DNA of 44,744 nucleotides. Source: Candidatus Amesbacteria bacterium GW2011_GWC1_47_15. GTDB lineage: Bacteria; Patescibacteriota; Microgenomatia; CAZETR01; Amesbacteraceae. Both the position numbers and the translations under genes were made by a program. This document shows positions 33,649 through 44,744 of the stretch, one piece after another; the stretch's first letter is position 1, and every line of letters starts with the position of its first letter. Below the pieces are notes generated by a model. That model was not told where the DNA came from. It was given only the letters and a program-made list of their open reading frames with translations, and did no database searches. The stretch spans positions 1 to 44,744 of the forward strand of contig LCNU01000001.1 of NCBI GenBank assembly GCA_001001375.1, written 5' to 3'.

Positions 33649-33690
33649 CCTCTTGCATTTTTTCTCCCGGATTGTATATTGAGGATGGCT

Positions 33691-34728
33691 ATGGCTACTG
33701 ATCAAAAACTACAGGCAATAAAAATTGCCATGGAGCAAATAGAAAAACAGTTCGGTAAAGGGTCTATTATGAAAATGGGGGAAAAAAATGAGAAATATAC
33801 CACTGATGTTATCCCGACCGGCTCAATTGCTTTGGATCTGGCTCTGGGTATCGGAGGTTTCCCCCGCGGCCGGGTAACCGAAATATACGGCCCCGAAGCT
33901 TCCGGAAAGACCACAATCGCTCTCCATTGTATCGCCGAAGCCCAAAAGGCAGGTGGGACCGCCGCATTTGTGGATGCGGAGCACGCCTTAGACCCTATCA
34001 GGGCGGAAAGCATTGGCGTGGATTTGGATAATCTTTACATTTCCCAGCCGGACAGTGGTGAGCAGGCTTTGGAAATAGTAGAGACGCTGATCCGCTCCGG
34101 TGCTATTGATGTGATTGTGATAGATTCCGTGGCCGCGCTCGTTCCTCGGGCTGAGCTGGAAGGGGAGATGGGAGATGCTGTTATGGGTGTTCAGGCCAGA
34201 CTCATGTCACAGGCTTTGAGAAAAATTACCGGTGCAATTTCCAAAAGCCGCTCCGTCGTTATTTTTACCAACCAATTGCGCATGAAAATCGGTGTCATGT
34301 TCGGCAACCCGGAAACAACTAGTGGTGGTATGGCCCTCAAGTTTTACTCTTCCGTTAGAATTGACGCCCGCAAAATTGAGACTCTCAAAGACGGGGACCA
34401 AGTTATCGGTTCCCGCCACCGCGCCCGGATTGTCAAAAACAAATTGGCTCCGCCTTTCCGGGTAGCAGAATTCGATATTTTAAACGTCGGCGGTATTTCC
34501 AAAGTTGGCGGTTTAATTGATGTCGGGTTGGAATTGGGTATACTACACAAAAAAGGTGCCTTCATTTACTTTGGAGAGCAGATTTTGGGCCAGGGCCGTG
34601 AAGCCGCTCGGACTTTTTTGACGGAAAATCCCAAGGTGGCCAAACATATCGAAGACGAAATCAGAAAATCAGTTAAGGACAGCAAGAAGCCCCTCCCCAA
34701 ACAAGTTGGCGAGGCGGTAGCGGAATAA
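33691..34728 (+). CDS. recA: Recombinase RecA
   Basis: [57 protein letters not shown]; start may instead be 33685. Confidence 0.99.
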
Positions 34729-34743
34729 TAGTAAAATATTAAC

Positions 34744-35355
34744 GTGGATCAAAAAGATATAGTCGGACCTGATTTTGAAAATAAAAAGATTATCCGTAGG
34801 GGGATTGTTCCCGTCTTTCTTACTCCTCACAACACCTATCTTTTACTTATTAAAAGCTCCTCCCGCGACGAGTTTGAAATTCCAGGGGGGGAAGCGAAAG
34901 TTGGATCGGGAGATACTCTCAGAGAACTTCAGGAAGAAACAGGGCTGCCATCCAGTATTTTCCATGCCACTCTATTAAATTTGCATCGCATACATAAATT
35001 CCCAATTATCGTTTCAGGAGGCAGTCATAAAAAATTAAATATTCAAAATATATTTTATCAAGCGATAACTAAAGTCAAACAACTCCCGGAAATAATTTTA
35101 TCTAAGGAACATAAAGACTACCTCTTTATAAAGCTTAATCAAACTGATGAACGGGATTATTGGTGGAATCTTAGACTGCAATGTATATCTGAAAAACTTC
35201 TAGTTACCAATACTGATGCACAGAATCATACAGCGGAATTTCGTAATATCGAATCAGAGATCCAAACAAATACTCAGAGAATTCCAATTTCTCAAATTAC
35301 TTCCCAAGCTTTACAATACTGGGCCTCTATCGACAGTTATATGCTCAATGAATAA
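34744..35355 (+). CDS. NUDIX-domain protein (AT-rich, shortened Nudix box)
   Basis: YLLLIK, FEIPGG...RELQEETGL, LSKEH.DY. Confidence 0.7.
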   Translation: MDQKDIVGPDFENKKIIRRGIVPVFLTPHNTYLLLIKSSSRDEFEIPGGEAKVGSGDTLRELQEETGLPSSIFHATLLNLHRIHKFPIIVSGGSHKKLNIQNIFYQAITKVKQLPEIILSKEHKDYLFIKLNQTDERDYWWNLRLQCISEKLLVTNTDAQNHTAEFRNIESEIQTNTQRIPISQITSQALQYWASIDSYMLNE

Positions 35356-35809
35356 TCTCGGATTTGATGAACTGCTCGGTTTGGTTATTAAATACTTAAG
35401 TTATCGTCCGCGTAGTAAAAAAGAAATAGAAAATTATCTTAGCCGCAAAACCTCCGACCAGACCCTGGTTGATCGAGTTATCAGCAAATTAGAGTCCGTC
35501 AAACTATTAGACGATGCCGCTTTTGCCAAATGGCTGGTGGAATCCCGCTCCCGCTCCCGCCCCCGCGGTGCCCGCCTTCTCAAACAGGAACTAAAGTCAA
35601 AAGGTATAACTGTTGACGATGAACAAATAAAGGTCGACGAAGTAGAATTGGCTGCACAGGCTTTGCAAAAGAAACTCAGGCTTTGGCAAAACCTGCCTTT
35701 CAGGGAATTCCGGGTCAAGGCCGGCAGATTCCTGGCTTACCGGGGCTTTTCCTGGTCTGCCATTGAGACAGTCGTTAAAAAAGAGTATAATAATATTAAT
35801 GTTAAATAA
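35348..35809 (+). CDS. recX: Regulatory protein RecX
   Basis: KYLSYRPRSKKEI..YL, LLDDAAFAKWLVESR...RPRG...LKQELKSKGI, FLAYRGFSW; ATG 35348 preferred. Confidence 0.92.
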   Translation: MNNLGFDELLGLVIKYLSYRPRSKKEIENYLSRKTSDQTLVDRVISKLESVKLLDDAAFAKWLVESRSRSRPRGARLLKQELKSKGITVDDEQIKVDEVELAAQALQKKLRLWQNLPFREFRVKAGRFLAYRGFSWSAIETVVKKEYNNINVK

Positions 35810-35829
35810 GTTAAACAGCTCATTTACTC

Positions 35830-37143
35830 ATGCCGTTTTATTCCCCTCCATCGGGTCATAAAGGTCCGTCCCCTTCAAATCAGCCTTCTCCCGGATTGGA
35901 AAAAGTCGAAAAGCTTTTGGACGAGGTCACCGGGAGGCTGGATCAATTGGAAAAACAGAAGGAAAAACTCAACGAGCTTCGCGATCAGTACCTGGAAAAA
36001 CTGGAGAAGGCCTCAGGTCTTTCCCGTCAGGAAGCTCGGGAAATTATTCTGGAGGAAGCCCAAAAGTACTATTCAGCCGATCTGGCTAAAATTATCGAGC
36101 AGACTCATCAGGACTATCAGGCCAGGGGTGACGAGTTAGCCCGGGAAATAATCATTTCTTCAATGCTCCACGGAGCGACAGACTATACCGCCGAATATAC
36201 TGTTTCCACGGTCACCTTGCCCAACGAAGGGGTCAAAGGTAGTATTATTGGTAAAGAAGGCCGCAATATTGCTGCCTTCGAAAAGGCCACCGGGGTGGAG
36301 ATCGAGATTGAGGAAGGCAATACCTTGCGGCTTTCATCATTCGATCCCATCCGACGGGAAATCGCCCGAAGAAGCTTGGAATTCCTCATCAAGGACAGCC
36401 GCATCACTCCTTCTCGTATTGAAGAAATAGTCTCTCAGACCCGAAAGTCTCTTGACAACATTTTGGTAGACGAAGGCCGTAAAATATGTGCCGCTTGCGG
36501 GGTCTATAATTTGCATCCGGATTTGGTAAAGACCATCGGTCGCTATCGTTTTCGTTTCTCATACGGCCAGAATTTAGGGATCCATACTATTGAAGAGACC
36601 AAAATAGGAGTTCAGATTGCTCACGAACTGAGCATGTCCGAGGACCAAATCCAGCTGGTCCGTCTTGGATGTCTCTTACATGATATCGGCAAAGTGGTTA
36701 CTGATGAAGAAGGGACTCACGTCCAGCTCGGTGTCCAGCTGCTAAAAAAATTCGATCTGCCGGATTTGGCTGTCAATGCTGTGGCAGAACATCATGAAGA
36801 TAAGCCATTTTCTTCAAACATCTCCCGCATTGTCTGGGTATCCGATGCTATTTCCGGTTCCCGTCCGGGTGCCCGTTACGAACCCCACGAGGCATACGTC
36901 AAGCGGTTGAAACAAATAGAAGAAATCGGCAGAGCGTTTCCCGAAGTTTCAGAGGTTTACGCTTTTCAGGCTGGCCGTGATGTCCGGGTCCTAGTCAAAC
37001 CGGAAATGATTTCCGATTCAGAACTCACTCTTCTGGTTTCCAAAATCAAACAAAAATTGGAGAAAGAAGCCCAATATGTAGGCCAAATAAAAGTAACGGG
37101 AATCCGGGAAGTCCGCGCCACAGATATCACCAAAGCGAAATAA
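35830..37143 (+). CDS. rny: Ribonuclease Y lacking the N-terminal membrane anchor
   Basis: KH domain KGSIIGKEGRNI..FE..TGVE, LSSFDPIRRE, SYGQN, HD domain LLHDIGK, DAISGSRPGAR, AFQAGRDVRV. Confidence 0.95.
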   Translation: MPFYSPPSGHKGPSPSNQPSPGLEKVEKLLDEVTGRLDQLEKQKEKLNELRDQYLEKLEKASGLSRQEAREIILEEAQKYYSADLAKIIEQTHQDYQARGDELAREIIISSMLHGATDYTAEYTVSTVTLPNEGVKGSIIGKEGRNIAAFEKATGVEIEIEEGNTLRLSSFDPIRREIARRSLEFLIKDSRITPSRIEEIVSQTRKSLDNILVDEGRKICAACGVYNLHPDLVKTIGRYRFRFSYGQNLGIHTIEETKIGVQIAHELSMSEDQIQLVRLGCLLHDIGKVVTDEEGTHVQLGVQLLKKFDLPDLAVNAVAEHHEDKPFSSNISRIVWVSDAISGSRPGARYEPHEAYVKRLKQIEEIGRAFPEVSEVYAFQAGRDVRVLVKPEMISDSELTLLVSKIKQKLEKEAQYVGQIKVTGIREVRATDITKAK

Positions 37144-37214
37144 ATCCCTTTGCTTCTTGACAAGTTTGGCTGGTTATAATAATTTGGCCTTAACAATGGG
37201 AATATTTATTGGAG

Positions 37215-37224
37215 AGGAGGTGAT
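37215..37224 (+). promoter_or_regulatory. Strong Shine-Dalgarno AGGAGGTGAT of the HU gene
   Basis: Full complement of the canonical anti-SD, 6 nt before GTG 37231. Confidence 0.75.
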
Positions 37225-37230
37225 TAGCAA

Positions 37231-37503
37231 GTGACTAAACAGCAGATGTTTGAGATAGTGGCCCGAAAAGCGCATTTGACCAAAAAGGGTGCGCGGGAGG
37301 CGGTGGAAACATTTCTGGACGAAGTAAAAAAAGCTCTTGGAAAAGGTGAAAAAGTCGTCCTGTCCGGTTTTGGAACTTTCAAAGTTACTCAGGTTAAAGA
37401 CAAACCGGTTATTATTCCGCGGACAAAAGAAAGAAAAATTGTCAAAGGCCATCGTGTTGCCCGCTTTACCCCGGGTAAGACTTTGAGAAAAGCCGTAAAA
37501 TAA
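37231..37503 (+). CDS. hup: HU/IHF-family nucleoid DNA-binding protein
   Basis: TK.Q...VA.KA.LTKK.A..AV..F...V..AL.KGEKV.LSGFGTF, ARFTPGK.LR.AVK. Confidence 0.92.
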   Translation: MTKQQMFEIVARKAHLTKKGAREAVETFLDEVKKALGKGEKVVLSGFGTFKVTQVKDKPVIIPRTKERKIVKGHRVARFTPGKTLRKAVK

Positions 37504-37542: not shown

Positions 37543-37569
37543 AAAAACGAGGTTCCCGCCTCGTTTTTT
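37543..37569 (+). terminator. Intrinsic terminator after hup (possibly bidirectional)
   Basis: AAAAACGAGG-ttcccg-CCTCGTTTTTT. Confidence 0.8.
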
Positions 37570-37595: not shown

Positions 37596-38387
37596 ATGCG
37601 TAAATACTGGTTTATTATGAAACTGGCCTGGCAAAGCTCCCTGGTATATCGGGGGGAAAGGATTGTCTGGTTGTTACTGGAAATCGCTCCCGCGGTGCTT
37701 ATGATAAATCTTTGGCAGAGTCTGCTTCGCAGTGGGCGGATTGACCAATCACAGTTCAGTTTCTTGTCTGCTTATTACCTCGTCAATGTTTTTATTTCCC
37801 GCGTATCGGGTGTAAATCTGGAAGATAAGCTGATAGACGATATTAAAGACGGTAGGATAAGCAATTACCTGCTCAAACCTCTCTCCCTGCCTCTTTCGCT
37901 TTTTGCCCAGGAAAGTTCCTGGAGGATTACCGCTGCTTTATATCTGCTTCCTCTGATGCCCTTTTTTCTGCCGCTTATCGGTTCCTTTACCGGCCTGGGG
38001 GTTACTCACTGGCAGGGTATATTTTTTGGGCTTTTTATTTTGCTCTCGTTTCTCCAGAAATATTTCGTTGCCTGGATAATTGGTCTTACCGCATTTTGGA
38101 TCGACGAATCCAAATCCCTGGTCCACGCCAGATGGATGGCGGAAGGTATCTTTGGCGGTATCTGGCTGCCTCTAACCTTTTTTCCTGTATGGTGGCAAAA
38201 AATAGCTTCCTTTAGCCCGTTTTATATTTGGTATTATTTCCCGGCCCGTTTGCTTTTGGACCCTTTTCCTATACCACAAATAATAAAAGGAATGACTGTC
38301 GCTATTATATGGACGCTTCTGCTATATCTGTTTGCCCGTTTTATCTGGAGCCGGGCAAAATTTCATTATTCCGCCGTTGGGGGTTAA
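37596..38387 (+). CDS. ABC-2 family (DUF990-type) permease, A-type copy 1
   Basis: About 6 TM; DIKDGRISNYLLKP, AFW, GG..LPL.FFP.W, C-terminal YSAVGG. Confidence 0.88.
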   Translation: MRKYWFIMKLAWQSSLVYRGERIVWLLLEIAPAVLMINLWQSLLRSGRIDQSQFSFLSAYYLVNVFISRVSGVNLEDKLIDDIKDGRISNYLLKPLSLPLSLFAQESSWRITAALYLLPLMPFFLPLIGSFTGLGVTHWQGIFFGLFILLSFLQKYFVAWIIGLTAFWIDESKSLVHARWMAEGIFGGIWLPLTFFPVWWQKIASFSPFYIWYYFPARLLLDPFPIPQIIKGMTVAIIWTLLLYLFARFIWSRAKFHYSAVGG

Positions 38388-39176
38388 ATGATAAAATACT
38401 TTTCCCTTTTCAAAAAATTCCTGGCTGTTTCCTGGATGCTCGCAATGGAATACCGCTCCGACTTTTTCATCTATACAGCCATAGATATAGTTTGGACAAT
38501 TTTAGATGTCGTATTTTTCTCGGTTCTGCTTTCCAATACACAGGTTATCGGTGACTGGAATTACGGCCAGGCGTTGGTCGCATTGGGTATTTTCCGTATT
38601 CTTTCCATATCTGTCTGGAGTTGGCTGTATTCGTCGTTCTCCCAACTTCCTCGGCTTATTTCCGAAGGCCGGCTGGATTTCTATTTGACCAAACCTGTTG
38701 ATTCACAGTTTCTGATTTCGGTTTCTCGTTTTTCTTTCAGCGGCTTAGCCTCGTTTGTCTCCGGAACGTTTATTATTATTGCCGGGTTAAACCGGCTTGG
38801 TCAGCATCTTTCAGTCTGGCAATTGTTTGCTGTCATCTGGTTGGGATTAGTAGCAACGGTTCTCATCTATGCTGTTTACTTCTTTTCTCTTTTCCCGTCA
38901 TTTTTTGCCGAGAGGATCAATAATATTCAACATGTTTTTTCCAATATTTATGATGCTACGAAATATCCTCCGCAAATTTATTCTCCCTTCTGGTCGCGGA
39001 TTCTGACTTCTGTTTTTCCATTAGCCTTAATGATTTCAGTTCCCGCGGATTTTCTCTTTGGCCGGGCTTCCTGGCAGCTATTATTCTGGTTTCATTTATT
39101 GACTCTCGCTTTCTTGTTTGCGGGCCGCTATCTCTGGCTTGCGGGTCTGCGCCGCTACTCCTCCGCCTCCTCCTAA
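38388..39176 (+). CDS. ABC-2 family (DUF990-type) permease, B-type copy 1
   Basis: IGDWNY, ISEGRLDFYLTKPVD, KYPPQIY, C-terminal RRYSSASS. Confidence 0.88.
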   Translation: MIKYFSLFKKFLAVSWMLAMEYRSDFFIYTAIDIVWTILDVVFFSVLLSNTQVIGDWNYGQALVALGIFRILSISVWSWLYSSFSQLPRLISEGRLDFYLTKPVDSQFLISVSRFSFSGLASFVSGTFIIIAGLNRLGQHLSVWQLFAVIWLGLVATVLIYAVYFFSLFPSFFAERINNIQHVFSNIYDATKYPPQIYSPFWSRILTSVFPLALMISVPADFLFGRASWQLLFWFHLLTLAFLFAGRYLWLAGLRRYSSASS

Positions 39177-39266
39177 ACCTCCTATGCAATTTCTACTTCT
39201 TTAAAAGGATACTCCTTTAACGAGTCTCCTTTTTAGCTGTCGGGCAGTATGGCGTAAAATTAACTT

Positions 39267-40055
39267 GTGCACAAAACCCTGGTTCTTATCCGCACCCATC
39301 TTTCCGACGCCCTTTCCTACCGGGGGGATATTTTTCTTTATACCATCGCCAATATAATCCAACCCTTGGTTCTGATAGCTATCTGGCTGGCCATCGGCGC
39401 TTCTGGGGGTAGTCTGCCTCTTCCGCAGGTGCAGCTGGTTCAATATTATCTGCTGGGTATGTTCATCCAGATATTTACCGGAGCCTGGGCTTCGCCTTTT
39501 CTTTCCCGCGATATCCGTCTGGGCGGGCTTTCCCCCTTTCTGGTCAAACCCTTGACCGTCCTGCAGTTCCAGATCGGCCAGAACTTGGCGGAAAAGCTGT
39601 TCAAGACTCTCTACACCCTCCCCGTTATAATCTTTCTTTTCCTGGTTTCCTCCACCACTTTTCCGGCCGCCGGTCCCCTGATTATTTTATTTTTCTTCGC
39701 TGCCATTCTGCTGGCCGGCATATTTTTGTTTTTTGCCGATTTGTGTATCGGACTGTCTGCCTTCTGGTTGGAGGATGCACTTTCGCTGCGGGAATTTTAT
39801 GACTTCACCCGTTATTTGTTCTCCGGGCGTCTATTTCCTCTGGTCGCACTACCCCTGTGGCTCCGGTCGGCGGCTGTCATTCTGCCGTTCCGCTATACCC
39901 ACTCTTTTCCTCTGGAAATTATTTTAAATCAGCTTACTCCCGTTCAGATGGCCATCGGCTTTGGCTATCAGCTCATTTGGGTCATCGCCGTTGTCCTTCT
40001 TTACCATCAGCTTTGGCACCGGGGTTTAAAAGTTTACTCTGCCTCCGGCGCCTGA
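39267..40055 (+). CDS. ABC-2 family (DUF990-type) permease, A-type copy 2
   Basis: DIRLGGLSPFLVKP, AFW, SGRLFPL..LP.W, C-terminal YSASGA. Confidence 0.88.
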   Translation: MHKTLVLIRTHLSDALSYRGDIFLYTIANIIQPLVLIAIWLAIGASGGSLPLPQVQLVQYYLLGMFIQIFTGAWASPFLSRDIRLGGLSPFLVKPLTVLQFQIGQNLAEKLFKTLYTLPVIIFLFLVSSTTFPAAGPLIILFFFAAILLAGIFLFFADLCIGLSAFWLEDALSLREFYDFTRYLFSGRLFPLVALPLWLRSAAVILPFRYTHSFPLEIILNQLTPVQMAIGFGYQLIWVIAVVLLYHQLWHRGLKVYSASGA

Positions 40056-40059
40056 AACC

Positions 40060-40848
40060 ATGCGCAGGTATTTCAGACTTCTATATTTCTTGGCCAAAAA
40101 TAATCTGGCCCGTGAATTCGAATTCCGCAGTTACCTGGTCATCAGGTGGCTGACGGATCTTATCTGGGTCGCCCTGCAGTTGATCTTGATCGTGGTCTTC
40201 TTCTCCTTCTCTCCCCAGATCCTGGGCTGGAACAGATACGAAATATTTATGTTTACCGGCCTGTTCCGCGTCATCAAAGGCGTTTTCGACACCTTTGCCA
40301 GAAGAAATATTCATTATCTGCCGGAAAATATCAATCGGGGAGATCTGGATTATGCTCTCACCCGCCCGGTCAACTCTCTGTTCCTCATGAGTTTCCGCTA
40401 TCATGCCCTGGGTGAGACCTCCTCCGTCGTTTCCGGTTTTATTATCTTTATATGGGCTTTTTCCCAATTGGGATCCGGGATCGGTTTAATCCAAATCGTC
40501 TCCCTGCTGGTCCTGATCATTACCGGAGTCATTATCCTGTATTGTCTGGTATTGGGATTTGCCATTCTCTCCTTTTTCACCACCCGCCTTACCGCCTTGA
40601 GTTCTTACTATGAGGTCCTTTCAAACACTTTGCGCTTTCCCACCGATATTTATCACCGCTACCACCCGTTGTTGGATGTGATTTTGTTGCCTCTGGTATT
40701 TGCCGTCACCTTCCCCACAAAAATATTTCTCAACCGGCTCCCGGCTGCGTTTCTGTTTCTGCAAATACTTGCCGCCGCGATCACTCTATTTTTGGTTTAC
40801 CGTTTCTGGCATTTCGCCCTCCGCCATTATTCCTCCGCCTCCTCCTGA
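40060..40848 (+). CDS. ABC-2 family (DUF990-type) permease, B-type copy 2
   Basis: ILGWNRYE, INRGDLDYALTRPVN, RFPTDIY, C-terminal RHYSSASS. Confidence 0.88.
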   Translation: MRRYFRLLYFLAKNNLAREFEFRSYLVIRWLTDLIWVALQLILIVVFFSFSPQILGWNRYEIFMFTGLFRVIKGVFDTFARRNIHYLPENINRGDLDYALTRPVNSLFLMSFRYHALGETSSVVSGFIIFIWAFSQLGSGIGLIQIVSLLVLIITGVIILYCLVLGFAILSFFTTRLTALSSYYEVLSNTLRFPTDIYHRYHPLLDVILLPLVFAVTFPTKIFLNRLPAAFLFLQILAAAITLFLVYRFWHFALRHYSSASS

Positions 40849-40865
40849 AACGGTACAATCAACAG

Positions 40866-41636
40866 GTGAAGAAATACCTGGTCCTCTTTTCCCAGCAATT
40901 TTCGGAATTCTCTGCCTATCGCGCTCATCTACTGATAACTCTCGTGGAGGGTTTTATTACCCCCTTGTTTTTGATTGTTGCCCTTTCATTTGCCCGCCCT
41001 ACTTCGGGCATTACTGCCGCCTCTCTTGTCCCCTATTTCCTGCTTATCGCCTTTATTTACCCTCTGATCCGCTCCCGTGTAGACGAACAGATAGACGAAA
41101 TGACCCTATCTGGAGAAGTCAACAACTTTCTTGTCCGCCCTCTCTCCTTTTATAAGTTTATGCTAACCCGTGAGTTTTCATGGAAGCTGGTCACGCTGGC
41201 TGTCGTCTTCCCTTTCCTTTTGCTGGCATTGATGTACTTTTCCCCCTCCGGGGAAATCAGTCTCTCTCTGGTTTCAGTAGCTTATGCAGTAATCGCTTCA
41301 TTTACAGCTTTTTTCCTTGCCTTTAACTTTAGTTATCTAATTGGCTTGACTGCTTTTTGGGTAGATGAATTTTGGGCGCTCCACAATATCAAACATGTCG
41401 TCTTCAATTTATTAAGCGGTGTTATCCTGCCGTATTCTTTTTTCCCGGACTGGTTCCAAAATACCCTTAAGTATTCGCCATTTTATTATATGACCAACTG
41501 GCCGGTGCGCATTCTCCAGGGGCAGGGGAGTGTCCAGCAGCTGATCCCTGCTCTAATTTGGACTGCCTTCTTGGGTGTTCTGGTTCAGTTGGTACAAAAC
41601 GCAGCTATTAATAAATACTCCTTTACCGGAGGATGA
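40866..41636 (+). CDS. ABC-2 family (DUF990-type) permease, A-type copy 3
   Basis: SGEVNNFLVRP, AFWVDE, SGVILPYSFFPDW, C-terminal YSFTGG. Confidence 0.88.
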   Translation: MKKYLVLFSQQFSEFSAYRAHLLITLVEGFITPLFLIVALSFARPTSGITAASLVPYFLLIAFIYPLIRSRVDEQIDEMTLSGEVNNFLVRPLSFYKFMLTREFSWKLVTLAVVFPFLLLALMYFSPSGEISLSLVSVAYAVIASFTAFFLAFNFSYLIGLTAFWVDEFWALHNIKHVVFNLLSGVILPYSFFPDWFQNTLKYSPFYYMTNWPVRILQGQGSVQQLIPALIWTAFLGVLVQLVQNAAINKYSFTGG

Positions 41637-42439
41637 ATATGCTCAAGGATTTGAAAAAATATTCGCGCATTTTCCTGGCGTTTCAAACCGCCGGACTGGC
41701 TAAGGATTTGAGCTTGCGCTTTAATCTCCTGATTTCCCTTTCCGGGTCGCTCTGTTTTTTCTATCTGCACCTCATCACTTTCGCATTGGTAATCAACCGT
41801 TTTAATTTTCCCGGCTGGTCGCAAGGGGAAATCTGGGTTATGCTGTTTACCTTCCAGGTATTTACTTATTTGTGTTTTTACTTGTTTTGGCGCGGTTTGG
41901 TCCATACTCCCCGGGATATTAGAAGTGGCACTTTCGATGTTATTCTTTCCAAACCTGTCAATTCCCGCTTTCTATCATTGATTAGAAACGGCAGTGCCCA
42001 TAACTGGATATCAGCCCTTTTGAGCATTATTTATTTGATTCTCTCCGTTAGCCGTTACCATCTTGATGTCACTCCTGTGGGCGTAATATTATTTGTTGTT
42101 TTCCTTTTATTCAGTCTCTGGTTGTTCCACTGTTTTTCTTCGCTGTTAATCACTCTCAATTTTAAATACGGCTTTCTCCCCGGTACTTCCGCCGCCGCTT
42201 TTGAGATCCAGGAAGTATTTAAATATCCCGCCGGCATCTTCTCCACCCGCTCTCTCTGGATCTGGTTGTTGGTAATTCCTTTTTCCCTACTTACCACTCT
42301 GCCAGCTTCTGCTCTCCTTCTCAAGCCTTTGTCTGCCAACCTGCTTATATTTTATGTGTTTATATTGGCTTTTTTTACTTTCGCCGCGGATCAAGCCTGG
42401 AACTCATCACTGCGTCATTATTCATCTGCCAGTTCATGA
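41633..42439 (+). CDS. ABC-2 family (DUF990-type) permease, B-type copy 3
   Basis: FPGWSQGE, IRSGTFDVILSKPVN, KYPAGIF, C-terminal RHYSSASS; ATGA overlap with A3. Confidence 0.88.
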   Translation: MNMLKDLKKYSRIFLAFQTAGLAKDLSLRFNLLISLSGSLCFFYLHLITFALVINRFNFPGWSQGEIWVMLFTFQVFTYLCFYLFWRGLVHTPRDIRSGTFDVILSKPVNSRFLSLIRNGSAHNWISALLSIIYLILSVSRYHLDVTPVGVILFVVFLLFSLWLFHCFSSLLITLNFKYGFLPGTSAAAFEIQEVFKYPAGIFSTRSLWIWLLVIPFSLLTTLPASALLLKPLSANLLIFYVFILAFFTFAADQAWNSSLRHYSSASS

Positions 42440-42469
42440 GTATTTAATGATAGAATTTAGTTATTCACT

Positions 42470-43453
42470 ATGCCCGTTATCCAGGTCCAAAATCTCAAAA
42501 AATACTACAAGGTCCATCAGAAGGAACCAGGACTTTCCGGCTCCATTCGCTCTCTTTTCAGTCGCAAATATTATGATGCCAAGGCTGTAGATGGCGTATC
42601 TTTTGATATCGGCGAAGGTGAGCTGGTAGGCTTTATCGGCCCAAACGGCGCTGGCAAGACTACGACCCTCAAGGTCCTTTCGGGCCTCCTCTATCCCACA
42701 TCAGGCACAGTATCTGTCTTGGGCTTCACTCCCTGGGACCGCAAGCCCGAGTTCCAAAAGCAGTTTTCTTTGGTCATGGGTCAGAAAAATCAGCTCTGGT
42801 GGGATTTACCCGCTATGGAGTCATTTATTCTCAACAAGGAAATCTACGAAGTACCTGACGCTCAATTCAAACAGACTTTGGATGAACTTGTTGAACTCTT
42901 GGAAGTAAAGGATTTTCTCAAAGTCCAGGTTAGGAAGCTTTCTCTGGGTCAGCGCATGAAAATGGAGCTCATCGCCGCTCTTATCCATTCCCCCAGGATT
43001 CTCTTTTTGGACGAGCCCACCATTGGCCTGGACGTGGTTATGCAGAAAAAAATGCGCGATTTTATCAAAGAGTACAACCAGCGCTTCAACTCTACTATAA
43101 TTCTCACCTCCCATTACATGGACGATGTCAAGGAACTCTGCGAGCGGGTAATTATTATCGACAAGGGCAGACTTCTCTTCGACGGGGCCTTGGCCGAGAT
43201 TATTAAAAAGTTTGCCAATCACAAACTCCTGACCGCCGTTTTCAGCGAAGAAGTTAATCGGGAAGATCTGGAAAAAATCGGCCAGGTCAAGGAATTCGAT
43301 TACCCCCGTGCGGTAATATCCGTCAAGCGCACTGTGGCTTCCCAAGCTGCCGCTCAACTGCTGCAGAACTTTCCGGTGGCCGATCTCAATATCGAAGAAC
43401 CGCAGATCGAGGACATCATTCGTGAAGTCTTTACGGGTAAAGACTTGGCGTAG
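42470..43453 (+). CDS. ABC transporter ATP-binding subunit
   Basis: Walker A GPNGAGKTT, GQKNQLWWDLPA, signature LSLGQR, Walker B LFLDEPTIGLD, H-loop TSHYM. Confidence 0.96.
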   Translation: MPVIQVQNLKKYYKVHQKEPGLSGSIRSLFSRKYYDAKAVDGVSFDIGEGELVGFIGPNGAGKTTTLKVLSGLLYPTSGTVSVLGFTPWDRKPEFQKQFSLVMGQKNQLWWDLPAMESFILNKEIYEVPDAQFKQTLDELVELLEVKDFLKVQVRKLSLGQRMKMELIAALIHSPRILFLDEPTIGLDVVMQKKMRDFIKEYNQRFNSTIILTSHYMDDVKELCERVIIIDKGRLLFDGALAEIIKKFANHKLLTAVFSEEVNREDLEKIGQVKEFDYPRAVISVKRTVASQAAAQLLQNFPVADLNIEEPQIEDIIREVFTGKDLA

Positions 43454-43462
43454 AATAAGCTA

Positions 43463-44263
43463 ATGCGCAAGTACCGGCTGATCTTCTCCCTTGCCTTTCA
43501 GAACGAGTTCATTTACCGCCTAAATTTCGTCCTCTGGCGCTTCAGAAATGTTCTGCGCGTCCTGCTCGCCTTCTTCCTTTGGAGTGTGGTCTTCACTGGC
43601 CGCGATACTGCCTTTGGCTATACCCGCCCCCAGATGCTGGGTTATGTCCTCTTCGTTCTCGTCATCCAGACGCTGGTCATGTCCGCCCCTTCAAACGACA
43701 ATGTTGGGGGTGAGATTGCCAATGGGGACCTAAGCAACTACCTGCTCAAGCCCGTCAGCTACCTCAAGTTCTGGTTCACCCGGGATCTGGCCAGTAAACT
43801 CCTGAATATTCTCTTTTCCGTCGGGGAAATCGTCCTTCTCTGGCTGTTGCTGCGCCCGGAAATTTACCTCTCCTTCCACCCCGTTTCCCTGCTCTTGGGA
43901 TTACTGTTATGGATTAGCGGCGTACTGATTTACTTCTTTCTCACCAAAATTGCCGTTTTTGCCGCTTTCTGGACACCGGAAAACACCTGGGGTTTTATGT
44001 TCGTAATTCTGGTTTTCATGGAAGTCCTCTCCGGCGCTATTTTTCCCCTGGACGTCCTGCCCGGTTGGGTGCAGTCCGCCCTGCAGTTCACCCCCTTTCC
44101 TTATCTGATTTATTACCCCATCGGCATTTTCGTGGACCGCTTCAGCCACGCCCATGCTTTGCGCCTTTTGGCCCAGTCTCTCATCTGGCTGGGTATAAGC
44201 ATCTGGCTTTCTTTGCGTGTCTGGCGTGCCGGGCTCAAAAATTATTCCGCCACCGGCCGTTGA
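43463..44263 (+). CDS. ABC-2 family (DUF990-type) permease, A-type copy 4
   Basis: EIANGDLSNYLLKP, AFW, SGAIFPLDVLP.W, C-terminal YSATGR. Confidence 0.88.
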   Translation: MRKYRLIFSLAFQNEFIYRLNFVLWRFRNVLRVLLAFFLWSVVFTGRDTAFGYTRPQMLGYVLFVLVIQTLVMSAPSNDNVGGEIANGDLSNYLLKPVSYLKFWFTRDLASKLLNILFSVGEIVLLWLLLRPEIYLSFHPVSLLLGLLLWISGVLIYFFLTKIAVFAAFWTPENTWGFMFVILVFMEVLSGAIFPLDVLPGWVQSALQFTPFPYLIYYPIGIFVDRFSHAHALRLLAQSLIWLGISIWLSLRVWRAGLKNYSATGR

Positions 44264-44264
44264 T

Positions 44265-44744
44265 ATGAAAATTCTCAAAATTATTTATCTCTACGCCTCC
44301 CCCGTCGTCTTCGTCATGTTTTTCCTCTCCAAGATTTTCCGCTTCGGCTTGTTTATCGTTTTTCTCTACTTTTTGGGCAGCAGCCTGGTTTCGGTGGGGG
44401 ATTACTCTGTTTCCCAGTTGCTGCTGTTTTATCTGATTTTCAATCTGGTAGATACTGCCGCCCAGATGCTCTTCCGGGAAGTCTATCGTTTCCGCCCTCT
44501 GATCATCTCCGGCGGTTTCGATCTGGTCCTCACCAAGCCCTTCCCGACTCTCCTGAGGGTTCTGGTTGGAGGCCCTGATTTTATCGATCTGGGTATTTTG
44601 CTCGTCCTGTTGGCAGTCATTGCCTATACCCTGGCCGTGCATGTCCGTCCGGACCCGGTCAGCCTGCTTATTTTCATTCTCCTGCTTATTAACTCTCTCA
44701 TTCTGGCCGCCGCTTTCCATATCTTTGTCCTTGGATTCGGCATT
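44265..44744 (+). CDS. ABC-2 family (DUF990-type) permease, B-type copy 4 (partial, runs off the 3' edge; not in the ORF track)
   Basis: Hand translation MKILKIIYLYASPVVFVMFFLSKIFRFG...LFREVYRFRPLIISGGFDLVLTKPF...HIFVLGFGI stays open to the window end. Confidence 0.85.
   Translation, partial: MKILKIIYLYASPVVFVMFFLSKIFRFGLFIVFLYFLGSSLVSVGDYSVSQLLLFYLIFNLVDTAAQMLFREVYRFRPLIISGGFDLVLTKPFPTLLRVLVGGPDFIDLGILLVLLAVIAYTLAVHVRPDPVSLLIFILLLINSLILAAAFHIFVLGFGI

Follow-up and report, generated by a model that had tools for sequence, protein, structure and literature searches.

The contig LCNU01000001.1 of Candidatus Amesbacteria bacterium GW2011_GWC1_47_15 ends in an array of eight permease genes and one gene for an ATP-binding cassette (ABC) ATPase, and our analysis suggests that one ATPase dimer serves four alternative heterodimeric exporters of the type V class, a reading to which we assign a probability of about 0.6. 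This contig (C1 of the assembly) is in its entirety the window analysed here, a stretch of 44,744 nucleotides (nt). The array had first been picked out from the letters and their translations alone, in what we call the sequence-only reading, which proposed a single motor shared by several membrane modules. That proposal now has comparative support from the one-to-many ratio found across the lineage (one ATPase against 2–10 permease matches in relatives), from conservation of the ATPase at the level of RecA, and from orphan permease pairs encoded apart from the ATPase.

The nine open reading frames (ORFs) of the array all lie on the plus strand (37596–44744) in the order A1-B1-A2-B2-A3-B3-ATPase-A4-B4, where A and B denote two types of permease. 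Pair 1 consists of A1 (37596–38387, 263 amino acids (aa)) and B1 (38388–39176, 262 aa), pair 2 of A2 (39267–40055, 262 aa, with a GTG start) and B2 (40060–40848, 262 aa), and pair 3 of A3 (40866–41636, 256 aa) and B3 (41633–42439, 268 aa), which overlaps A3 by 4 nt. These are followed by the ATPase gene (42470–43453, 327 aa), whose product has the Walker A motif GPNGAGKT, the signature LSLGQ and a DrrA-like C-terminal extension, and then by A4 (43463–44263, 266 aa) and B4, of which the window contains the first 160 codons (44265–44744). Gaps inside the pairs are 0, 4, -4 and 1 nt for pairs 1 to 4, the A4/B4 junction reading TGA, T, ATG at 44261–44267, and successive units are separated by 90 nt (B1 to A2), 17, 30 and 9 nt. 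The ORF list therefore bears out the gene order, strict alternation and within-pair spacing of the sequence-only reading. The last 99 nt of the window (44646–44744) are identical to positions 1–99 of contig C37, from which we conclude that the two contigs abut, that the assembly breaks inside B4, and that B4, with its remainder on C37, is complete at 250 aa. Beyond B4, contig C37 encodes a 152-aa ORF without a Pfam match and then a miaA-like ORF. As these are not a fifth pair, the earlier count of "at least four" becomes exactly four at this locus.

All permeases (8/8) matched PF06182 (ABC2_membrane_6, formerly DUF990) above its curated cut-off of 22 bits, with scores of 42–137 bits and E-values of 1e-10 to 1e-39. 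Complete B-type proteins scored 87–137 bits (B1, 136; B2, 137) and A-type proteins 50–91 bits (A1, 57; A4, 91.5). The ATPase matched PF00005, and its closest model was TIGR01188 (drrA, 216 bits, under that model's cut-off), so that the expected Pfam match was obtained for 9/9 proteins of the array, a result that chance could not plausibly give. In agreement with the first assignment to DUF990 permeases with an LSLGQ ATPase, permeases and ATPase belong to the EVE/DUF990 family (PF06182, TCDB 3.A.1.141), which is the family of EvrABC. The hallmark of that family, two unlike permeases beside a DrrA/NatA-like ATPase, is present at the locus, whereas the usual ratio of one ATPase gene to two permease genes is departed from, with eight permease genes for one ATPase gene. 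That this ratio is the usual one had also been stated from the outset, and it is what we found outside the phylum, where 3/3 plasmid loci (Bacillus, Chloroflexota and Bradyrhizobium) have the arrangement ATPase-permease-permease. The same holds for the family member BC0513-0515 of B. cereus, described with one C and two M genes (PMC5417439, excerpt), and for the three-gene natA-COG3694-COG4587 operons preceded by ppGpp (guanosine tetraphosphate) riboswitches (PMC6003355, excerpt).

Each permease type has its own set of motifs, which had been noticed in the window and are visible in the alignments. A-type proteins share G..(L/I/V)..(Y/F)L.(K/R)P, AFW and G...P....P and end in YS..G., with Y60, G86, P95, G188, P192 and P208 invariant in a 51-row alignment. 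B-type proteins share G.(L/F)D..L.(K/R)P and (Y/F)P..I(Y/F) and end in YSSASS, except for B4, which ends in HYQSASS; here G94, P103, P194, P211, P219, Y257 and A260 are invariant, again over 51 rows. The first motif of each set lies in a loop and is kept by all copies (G86/P95 in the 51 A rows, G94/P103 in the 51 B rows).

A count over the whole assembly (914 kb, 52 contigs, an estimated 88% complete) gave one cognate ATPase. Six-frame searching with PF06182 revealed no permease in the assembly beyond the eight, a ninth match being the end of B4 on C37. Three other ABC ATPases are encoded, 27–32% identical to that of the array, which has no paralogue above 32% identity in the assembly. Each of the three adjoins a different class of permease: an ABC-2 permease of PF01061 on contig C12, whose ATPase is 32% identical to that of the array, FtsX with a PcsB-like protein on contig C10, and HlyD with a MacB-type permease on contig C4. 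There are thus fewer ATPase genes than permease sets: at this level of completeness, four pairs are matched by a single cognate ATPase.

The same imbalance is found in relatives. We compared 41 genomes, namely this one (G000) and 40 of the same family, order or class, counting PF06182 matches, which are not gene counts as split genes count twice. PF06182 was present in 34 of them, G000 included: 25 had more than two matches, eight had two and one had a single match, with a maximum of 10. With the window ATPase as the query, a cognate ATPase of at least 48% identity was found in 33 of these 34 genomes and exactly one in 32, among them genomes 95–100% complete with 4–9 permease matches. The genome without one (G024) has two permease contigs, one of which starts within a permease gene. 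Three members of the same family (G010, G013 and G019, 92–100% complete) had no PF06182 match; G010 and G019 also had no ATPase match at an E-value of 1e-30 or better, and G013 had only one of 35% identity.

Gene maps of 20 regions from these relatives followed the scheme [A-B]n, ATPase, A-B (n = 0–3), A and B always alternating; in G004, three pairs lie 5′ of the ATPase and none 3′ of it. Several relatives, for example G012, G015, G016 and G007, have the array a few kb from recA, and these coordinates indicate that the site is syntenic and that pair content varies in place. We also collected 80 public loci, using the ATPase protein as the query and centring each locus on the ATPase; as at least 11 of the 80 are the same contigs as the relatives' regions, neither set is independent of the other. 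The nearest by ATPase were labelled Candidatus Amesbacteria and the next nearest were other Microgenomates and Patescibacteria; the layouts were ATPase-A-B, A-B-ATPase-A-B, A-B-A-B-ATPase-A-B and ATPase-A-B-A-B. Of these loci, 32 extend for 8 kb or more in both directions, and in them permease genes numbered one (1 locus), two (13), three (2), four (10), six (4) or seven (2). Eight were found in none of these 32, which makes the array in the window the largest contiguous one seen in its own class. In other Patescibacteria, PF06182 occurred in 18 of 100 genomes of an even sample (at least 85% complete), six of the 18 having at least four matches. Two genomes of another family, G059 (L124, G059:C23) and G086 (L125, G086:C12), have two ATPase paralogues and seven permeases in one array, ordered ATPase-A-B-ATPase-B-A-B-B-B by A and B profiles, so that alternation is not strict. 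The multi-pair array is therefore not particular to this genome; it is widespread in Microgenomates and present in other Patescibacteria, some lineages having a second ATPase. Some relatives also have, between the upstream pairs and the ATPase and on the opposite strand, an ORF of 448–486 aa with a weak ABC/AAA-like match (55–68 bits to the ATPase profile), as at L031 4312–5772 (plus strand) and L043 4420–5766 (minus strand), and also in L047 and L056.

Permease pairs also occur away from any cognate ATPase. G007, a 95% complete genome with a single cognate ATPase, carries an orphan A-B pair 245 kb from that ATPase and on the opposite strand (L027 3151–4730, corresponding to about 348.6–350.2 kb of G007:C1). 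The pair is flanked by ftsW and murG and lies in a division and cell-wall cluster, mraY-ftsW-murG-ftsA, in which the mraY gene is assigned as mraY-like. A further pair of the same genome lies 3.7 kb 3′ of its array. In G030, five pairs are spread over four contigs for one cognate ATPase, with pairs on three contigs other than that of the ATPase. The neighbours of the four non-adjacent pairs are unrelated genes, and the sole ABC-type sequence nearby is a C-terminal fragment of ABC_tran at the edge of the locus, 2.5 kb away and across other genes. Orphan pairs, too, are adjacent A-B pairs in the relatives' regions examined.

These counts bear on the possibility that only A4-B4 uses the array ATPase, pairs 1–3 being served by an ATPase missing from the assembly or by one of the three other ABC ATPases. 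The incompleteness of the assembly (88%) leaves room for this, some relatives do have a second ATPase, and the pair 4 type follows the ATPase in nearly all genomes, including the 15 genomes that carry it in our trees, and forms by far the largest sequence cluster (78 A and 67 B sequences). We nevertheless consider it unlikely, given that 32 of 34 genomes have exactly one cognate ATPase, the nearly complete ones with several pairs among them, that the other ATPases of this genome each adjoin a permease class of their own, that the nine genes share a strand and are spaced by only -4 to 90 nt, and that G004 lacks a pair in the position of A4-B4 altogether.

Conservation differs markedly between the ATPase and its presumed partners. 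Within the family, array ATPases are 78–88% identical to the window copy, which compares with 79–89% for RecA from the same genomes, while orthologous permeases are 40–62% identical. The other ABC-2-type ATPase of this genome was found in only 5 of 24 family genomes, at 49–65% identity. Conservation of the array ATPase as strong as that of RecA is in keeping with a motor on which several partners impose constraints. The paralogous permeases within the window share 20–32% identity and each has orthologues in other genera, which rules out recent tandem duplication. When 144 unique A and 141 unique B sequences were clustered by single linkage (36% identity, 200 residues), they formed 28 A and 21 B groups, of which 12 and 10, respectively, had at least two members; the four pairs of the window fell into four separate groups of each type.

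Trees of the two types were inferred quickly with IQ-TREE and carry support values only from the Shimodaira–Hasegawa-like approximate likelihood ratio test (46 B rows and 45 A rows, after dropping rows shorter than 200 aa, which removed one truncated A). Each pair of the window formed matching, well-supported clades: for pair 1, B1 had 7 rows (support 100) and A1 6 rows (98), with A1 orthologues in five other genomes at a best identity of 48%; pairs 2 and 3 had 4 rows of each type (B2, 95; A2, 99; B3 and A3, 100 each), and pair 4 had 15 of each (B4, 99; A4, 98). The dropped row aside, the A and B clades of every pair contain the same genomes, and the pairs are therefore old, distinct cassettes inherited as A-B units. 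Because the trees are congruent and the pairs co-inherited, four fixed heterodimers are favoured over free mixing, and the earlier speculation that mixing of A and B could yield up to sixteen transporters is correspondingly disfavoured. A broader form of this idea, in which permeases pair non-cognately, form homodimers or join a larger assembly so that the number of transporters is not four, could draw on the motif set common to all A and that common to all B, as interfaces might then be compatible, and on the order ATPase-B-A-B-B-B within the arrays of G059 and G086 as assigned by profiles. Against it stand the identical genome content of the A and B orthogroups for all four pairs, the strict alternation with only 0, 4, -4 and 1 nt within pairs, and the adjacency of A and B in the relatives examined, orphans included; on balance, we regard it as improbable.

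Gene decay, which the sequence-only reading had named as a finding that would count against it, was ruled out, as all eight permease frames are intact, the family-invariant residues, those of the loop and the C terminus included, are kept and orthologues exist in other genera; we relied on intact frames and invariant residues because, at 40–62% identity between orthologues, synonymous sites are saturated. For this reason, and since we know of no ATPase-free role for the type V exporter fold, it is very improbable that the extra pairs have roles independent of ATP hydrolysis, for example as scaffolds, sensors or passive carriers, or that they are being lost, even though orphan pairs lie far from any ATPase and pair content differs between genera in a way that points to turnover.

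Structural modelling placed the permeases in the expected exporter class. AlphaFold2 models built from 51-row alignments had a mean predicted local distance difference test score of 94.4 for B1 and 93.2 for A1. The nearest folds to the B1 model were Wzm (Z 13.7 and 13.2), KpsM (12.7) and TarG (12.3), aligned over 242–246 of 262 residues, followed by the transmembrane domains of ABCG and ABCA, PmtCD, CcmB and NosY; an Mce1 permease reached only Z 6.8. Z values of this size are only moderately above background for helical bundles, although the best matches all belong to a single class. Foldseek with B1 likewise returned the right fold class at the top, with template modelling scores of 0.40–0.58 and E-values of 0.05 or weaker, and a sequence search of the PDB with B1 and A4 found no relative. 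On the basis of these models, the fold is that of type V (ABC-2) exporters, with six helices and an interface helix at the N terminus. In type V transporters, a coupling helix lies between the second and third transmembrane helices (TM2 and TM3). The loop motif occupies the corresponding place, falling in B1 between helices 59–84 and 119–137, and in the models the invariant residues G94/P103 of B and G86/P95 of A lie between the second and third long helices. Prediction of a complex of A1, B1 and two copies of ATPase residues 3–239 scored 0.61–0.64 and a control with an unrelated chain 1 scored 0.53; we counted this result neither way.

We infer from these observations that all four pairs are bound by the ATPase, which would dock on the conserved loop, and that transport is directed outward. 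In the mechanism we propose, a single ATPase homodimer would dock on the conserved cytoplasmic TM2–TM3 loop (G..L..YL.KP in A, G.LD..L.KP in B) and would power whichever fixed A-B heterodimer it had bound, so that one motor would drive four transporters that differ in their substrate pockets.

Several known systems share parts of this arrangement. EvrABC of Synechocystis and the EVE family (COG4587 and COG3694) have the same Pfam family, a NatA/DrrA-like ATPase and two unlike adjacent permeases; they differ in having one pair per ATPase where four occur here, and EvrABC is described as a viologen exporter. The Wzm-Wzt, KpsMT and TarGH systems provide the closest solved folds to the B1 model, but their permeases are homodimeric, serve lipid-linked polymers and show 7–13% sequence identity to B1. 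Group II energy-coupling factor (ECF) transporters use one energising module for several specificity modules. These transporters, like the systems served by MsmX, MsiK and FhuC, resemble the array in combining one energising module with several membrane specificity modules; they are importers with other folds, so the resemblance is one of logic and not of descent. The likeness to group II ECF transporters drawn in the sequence-only reading accordingly holds as an analogy and goes no further: no ECF T or S family was matched by any array protein in Pfam, all membrane subunits being PF06182, and the ATPase scored far under the cut-offs of the ECF ATPase models. A closer parallel is the mycobacterial Mce system, which likewise has one ATPase, four A/B heterodimers and a loop motif common to eight permeases: MceG is common to YrbE1-4A/B, and a cytoplasmic EExDA loop present in all eight of these permeases has been proposed as the place where it docks (PMC9947336, excerpt). 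Mce systems differ in being MlaE-like lipid importers with Mce periplasmic proteins, with another fold and direction, and in that MceG is encoded apart from the operons. Multitask ATPases such as MsmX and FhuC have been described for type I importers (PMC7658222 and PMC10147376).

By analogy with characterised relatives, the cargo is likely to consist of small amphipathic or cationic molecules, because evrABC is reported as a viologen exporter (PMC13366656, excerpt) and family members occur in natural-product clusters. On the B. cereus plasmid NZ_PP277075.1, the triple at 40192–42769 lies amid queC, queD, queE, folE and genes for a glycosyltransferase, a carbamoyltransferase, a deacetylase and a methyltransferase; the locus resembles a gene cluster for a 7-deazapurine natural product that includes the exporter. 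The Bradyrhizobium triple adjoins nonribosomal peptide synthetase genes, and that of the Chloroflexota plasmid has no telling context. Contexts of the queC/D/E and peptide synthetase kinds suggest that small natural products are exported. The fold neighbours and the orphan pair between ftsW and murG point instead to envelope precursors, which are the second candidate cargo.

Several considerations weigh against a single motor shared by all four pairs. Binding of the ATPase to pairs 1–3 is presumed from comparative sequence data, and a second cognate ATPase could lie in the part missing from this incomplete assembly (88%, 52 contigs). High conservation of the ATPase could have other causes. Layouts with one ATPase per module also occur in the phylum: two ATPases of the cognate type are encoded in G014, a divergent pair in G023 adjoins an ATPase of its own (35% identity), and G059 and G086 carry the paralogues mentioned above. 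Judging from the models, the closest folds (Wzm, KpsM and TarG) move lipid-linked polymers and not drugs. Finally, the lack of PF06182 in three genomes of the same family that are 92–100% complete indicates that the system is dispensable there and not universal in the family.

Upstream of the array in the window (33679–37503), the translations identify recA, a NUDIX-like ORF and recX-like, RNase Y-like and HU-like genes, and 3′ of the HU-like gene a pattern match revealed a terminator-like hairpin on the plus strand (37543–37568, 11 pairs followed by a T run), the likely upstream limit of the transporter operon. This hairpin apart, promoter and terminator scans were at the level of shuffled sequence, as was the total of terminator-like sites in the region by pattern scan. 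Rfam gave no match in the window, which indicates that no ppGpp or other riboswitch lies upstream, unlike in some Firmicutes operons. The AT skew is strongly negative (-0.29 to -0.36) at window positions 38001–42000 and the GC skew is also negative across the permease genes, probably reflecting the T-rich codons of membrane proteins encoded on the plus strand.

Taken more widely, the data can be read as a modular type V export platform of the Microgenomates, with one ATPase and a library of at least 10 ancient, exchangeable A-B cassettes, a proposal that we offer tentatively and at slightly less than even odds. The ATPase would reside at a fixed site (recA-recX-rny-hup), and genera would hold different subsets of cassettes, some of them dispersed as orphans. 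Both the family and the principle of sharing are known, ATPase sharing being established for importers (MsmX/MsiK, FhuC and group II ECF) and for Mce systems; their combination and its scale appear not to have been described. In the main texts of open-access literature we found neither multiplied DUF990 pairs nor the sharing of an ATPase by ABC-2 exporters described, and a paper on Patescibacteria that mentions ABC-2 gives, in its available part, only KEGG names (PMC8672522). If true, the platform would be, as far as the literature searched goes, the first shared-motor system among ABC-2 exporters.

Genomes of these bacteria measure about 0.9 Mb, and this one devotes about 7.4 kb (0.8%) to eight permeases; together with the RecA-like conservation of the motor, this suggests that the function is an important one. 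The system is practical to study, with nine small genes, of which A1 and B1 were modelled with high confidence, and it bears on the way in which a single nucleotide-binding domain can recognise a range of membrane partners, as well as on what these uncultured bacteria export. If the proposal of a modular platform is true, it could be a main small-molecule or envelope interface of these reduced and probably host-dependent bacteria.

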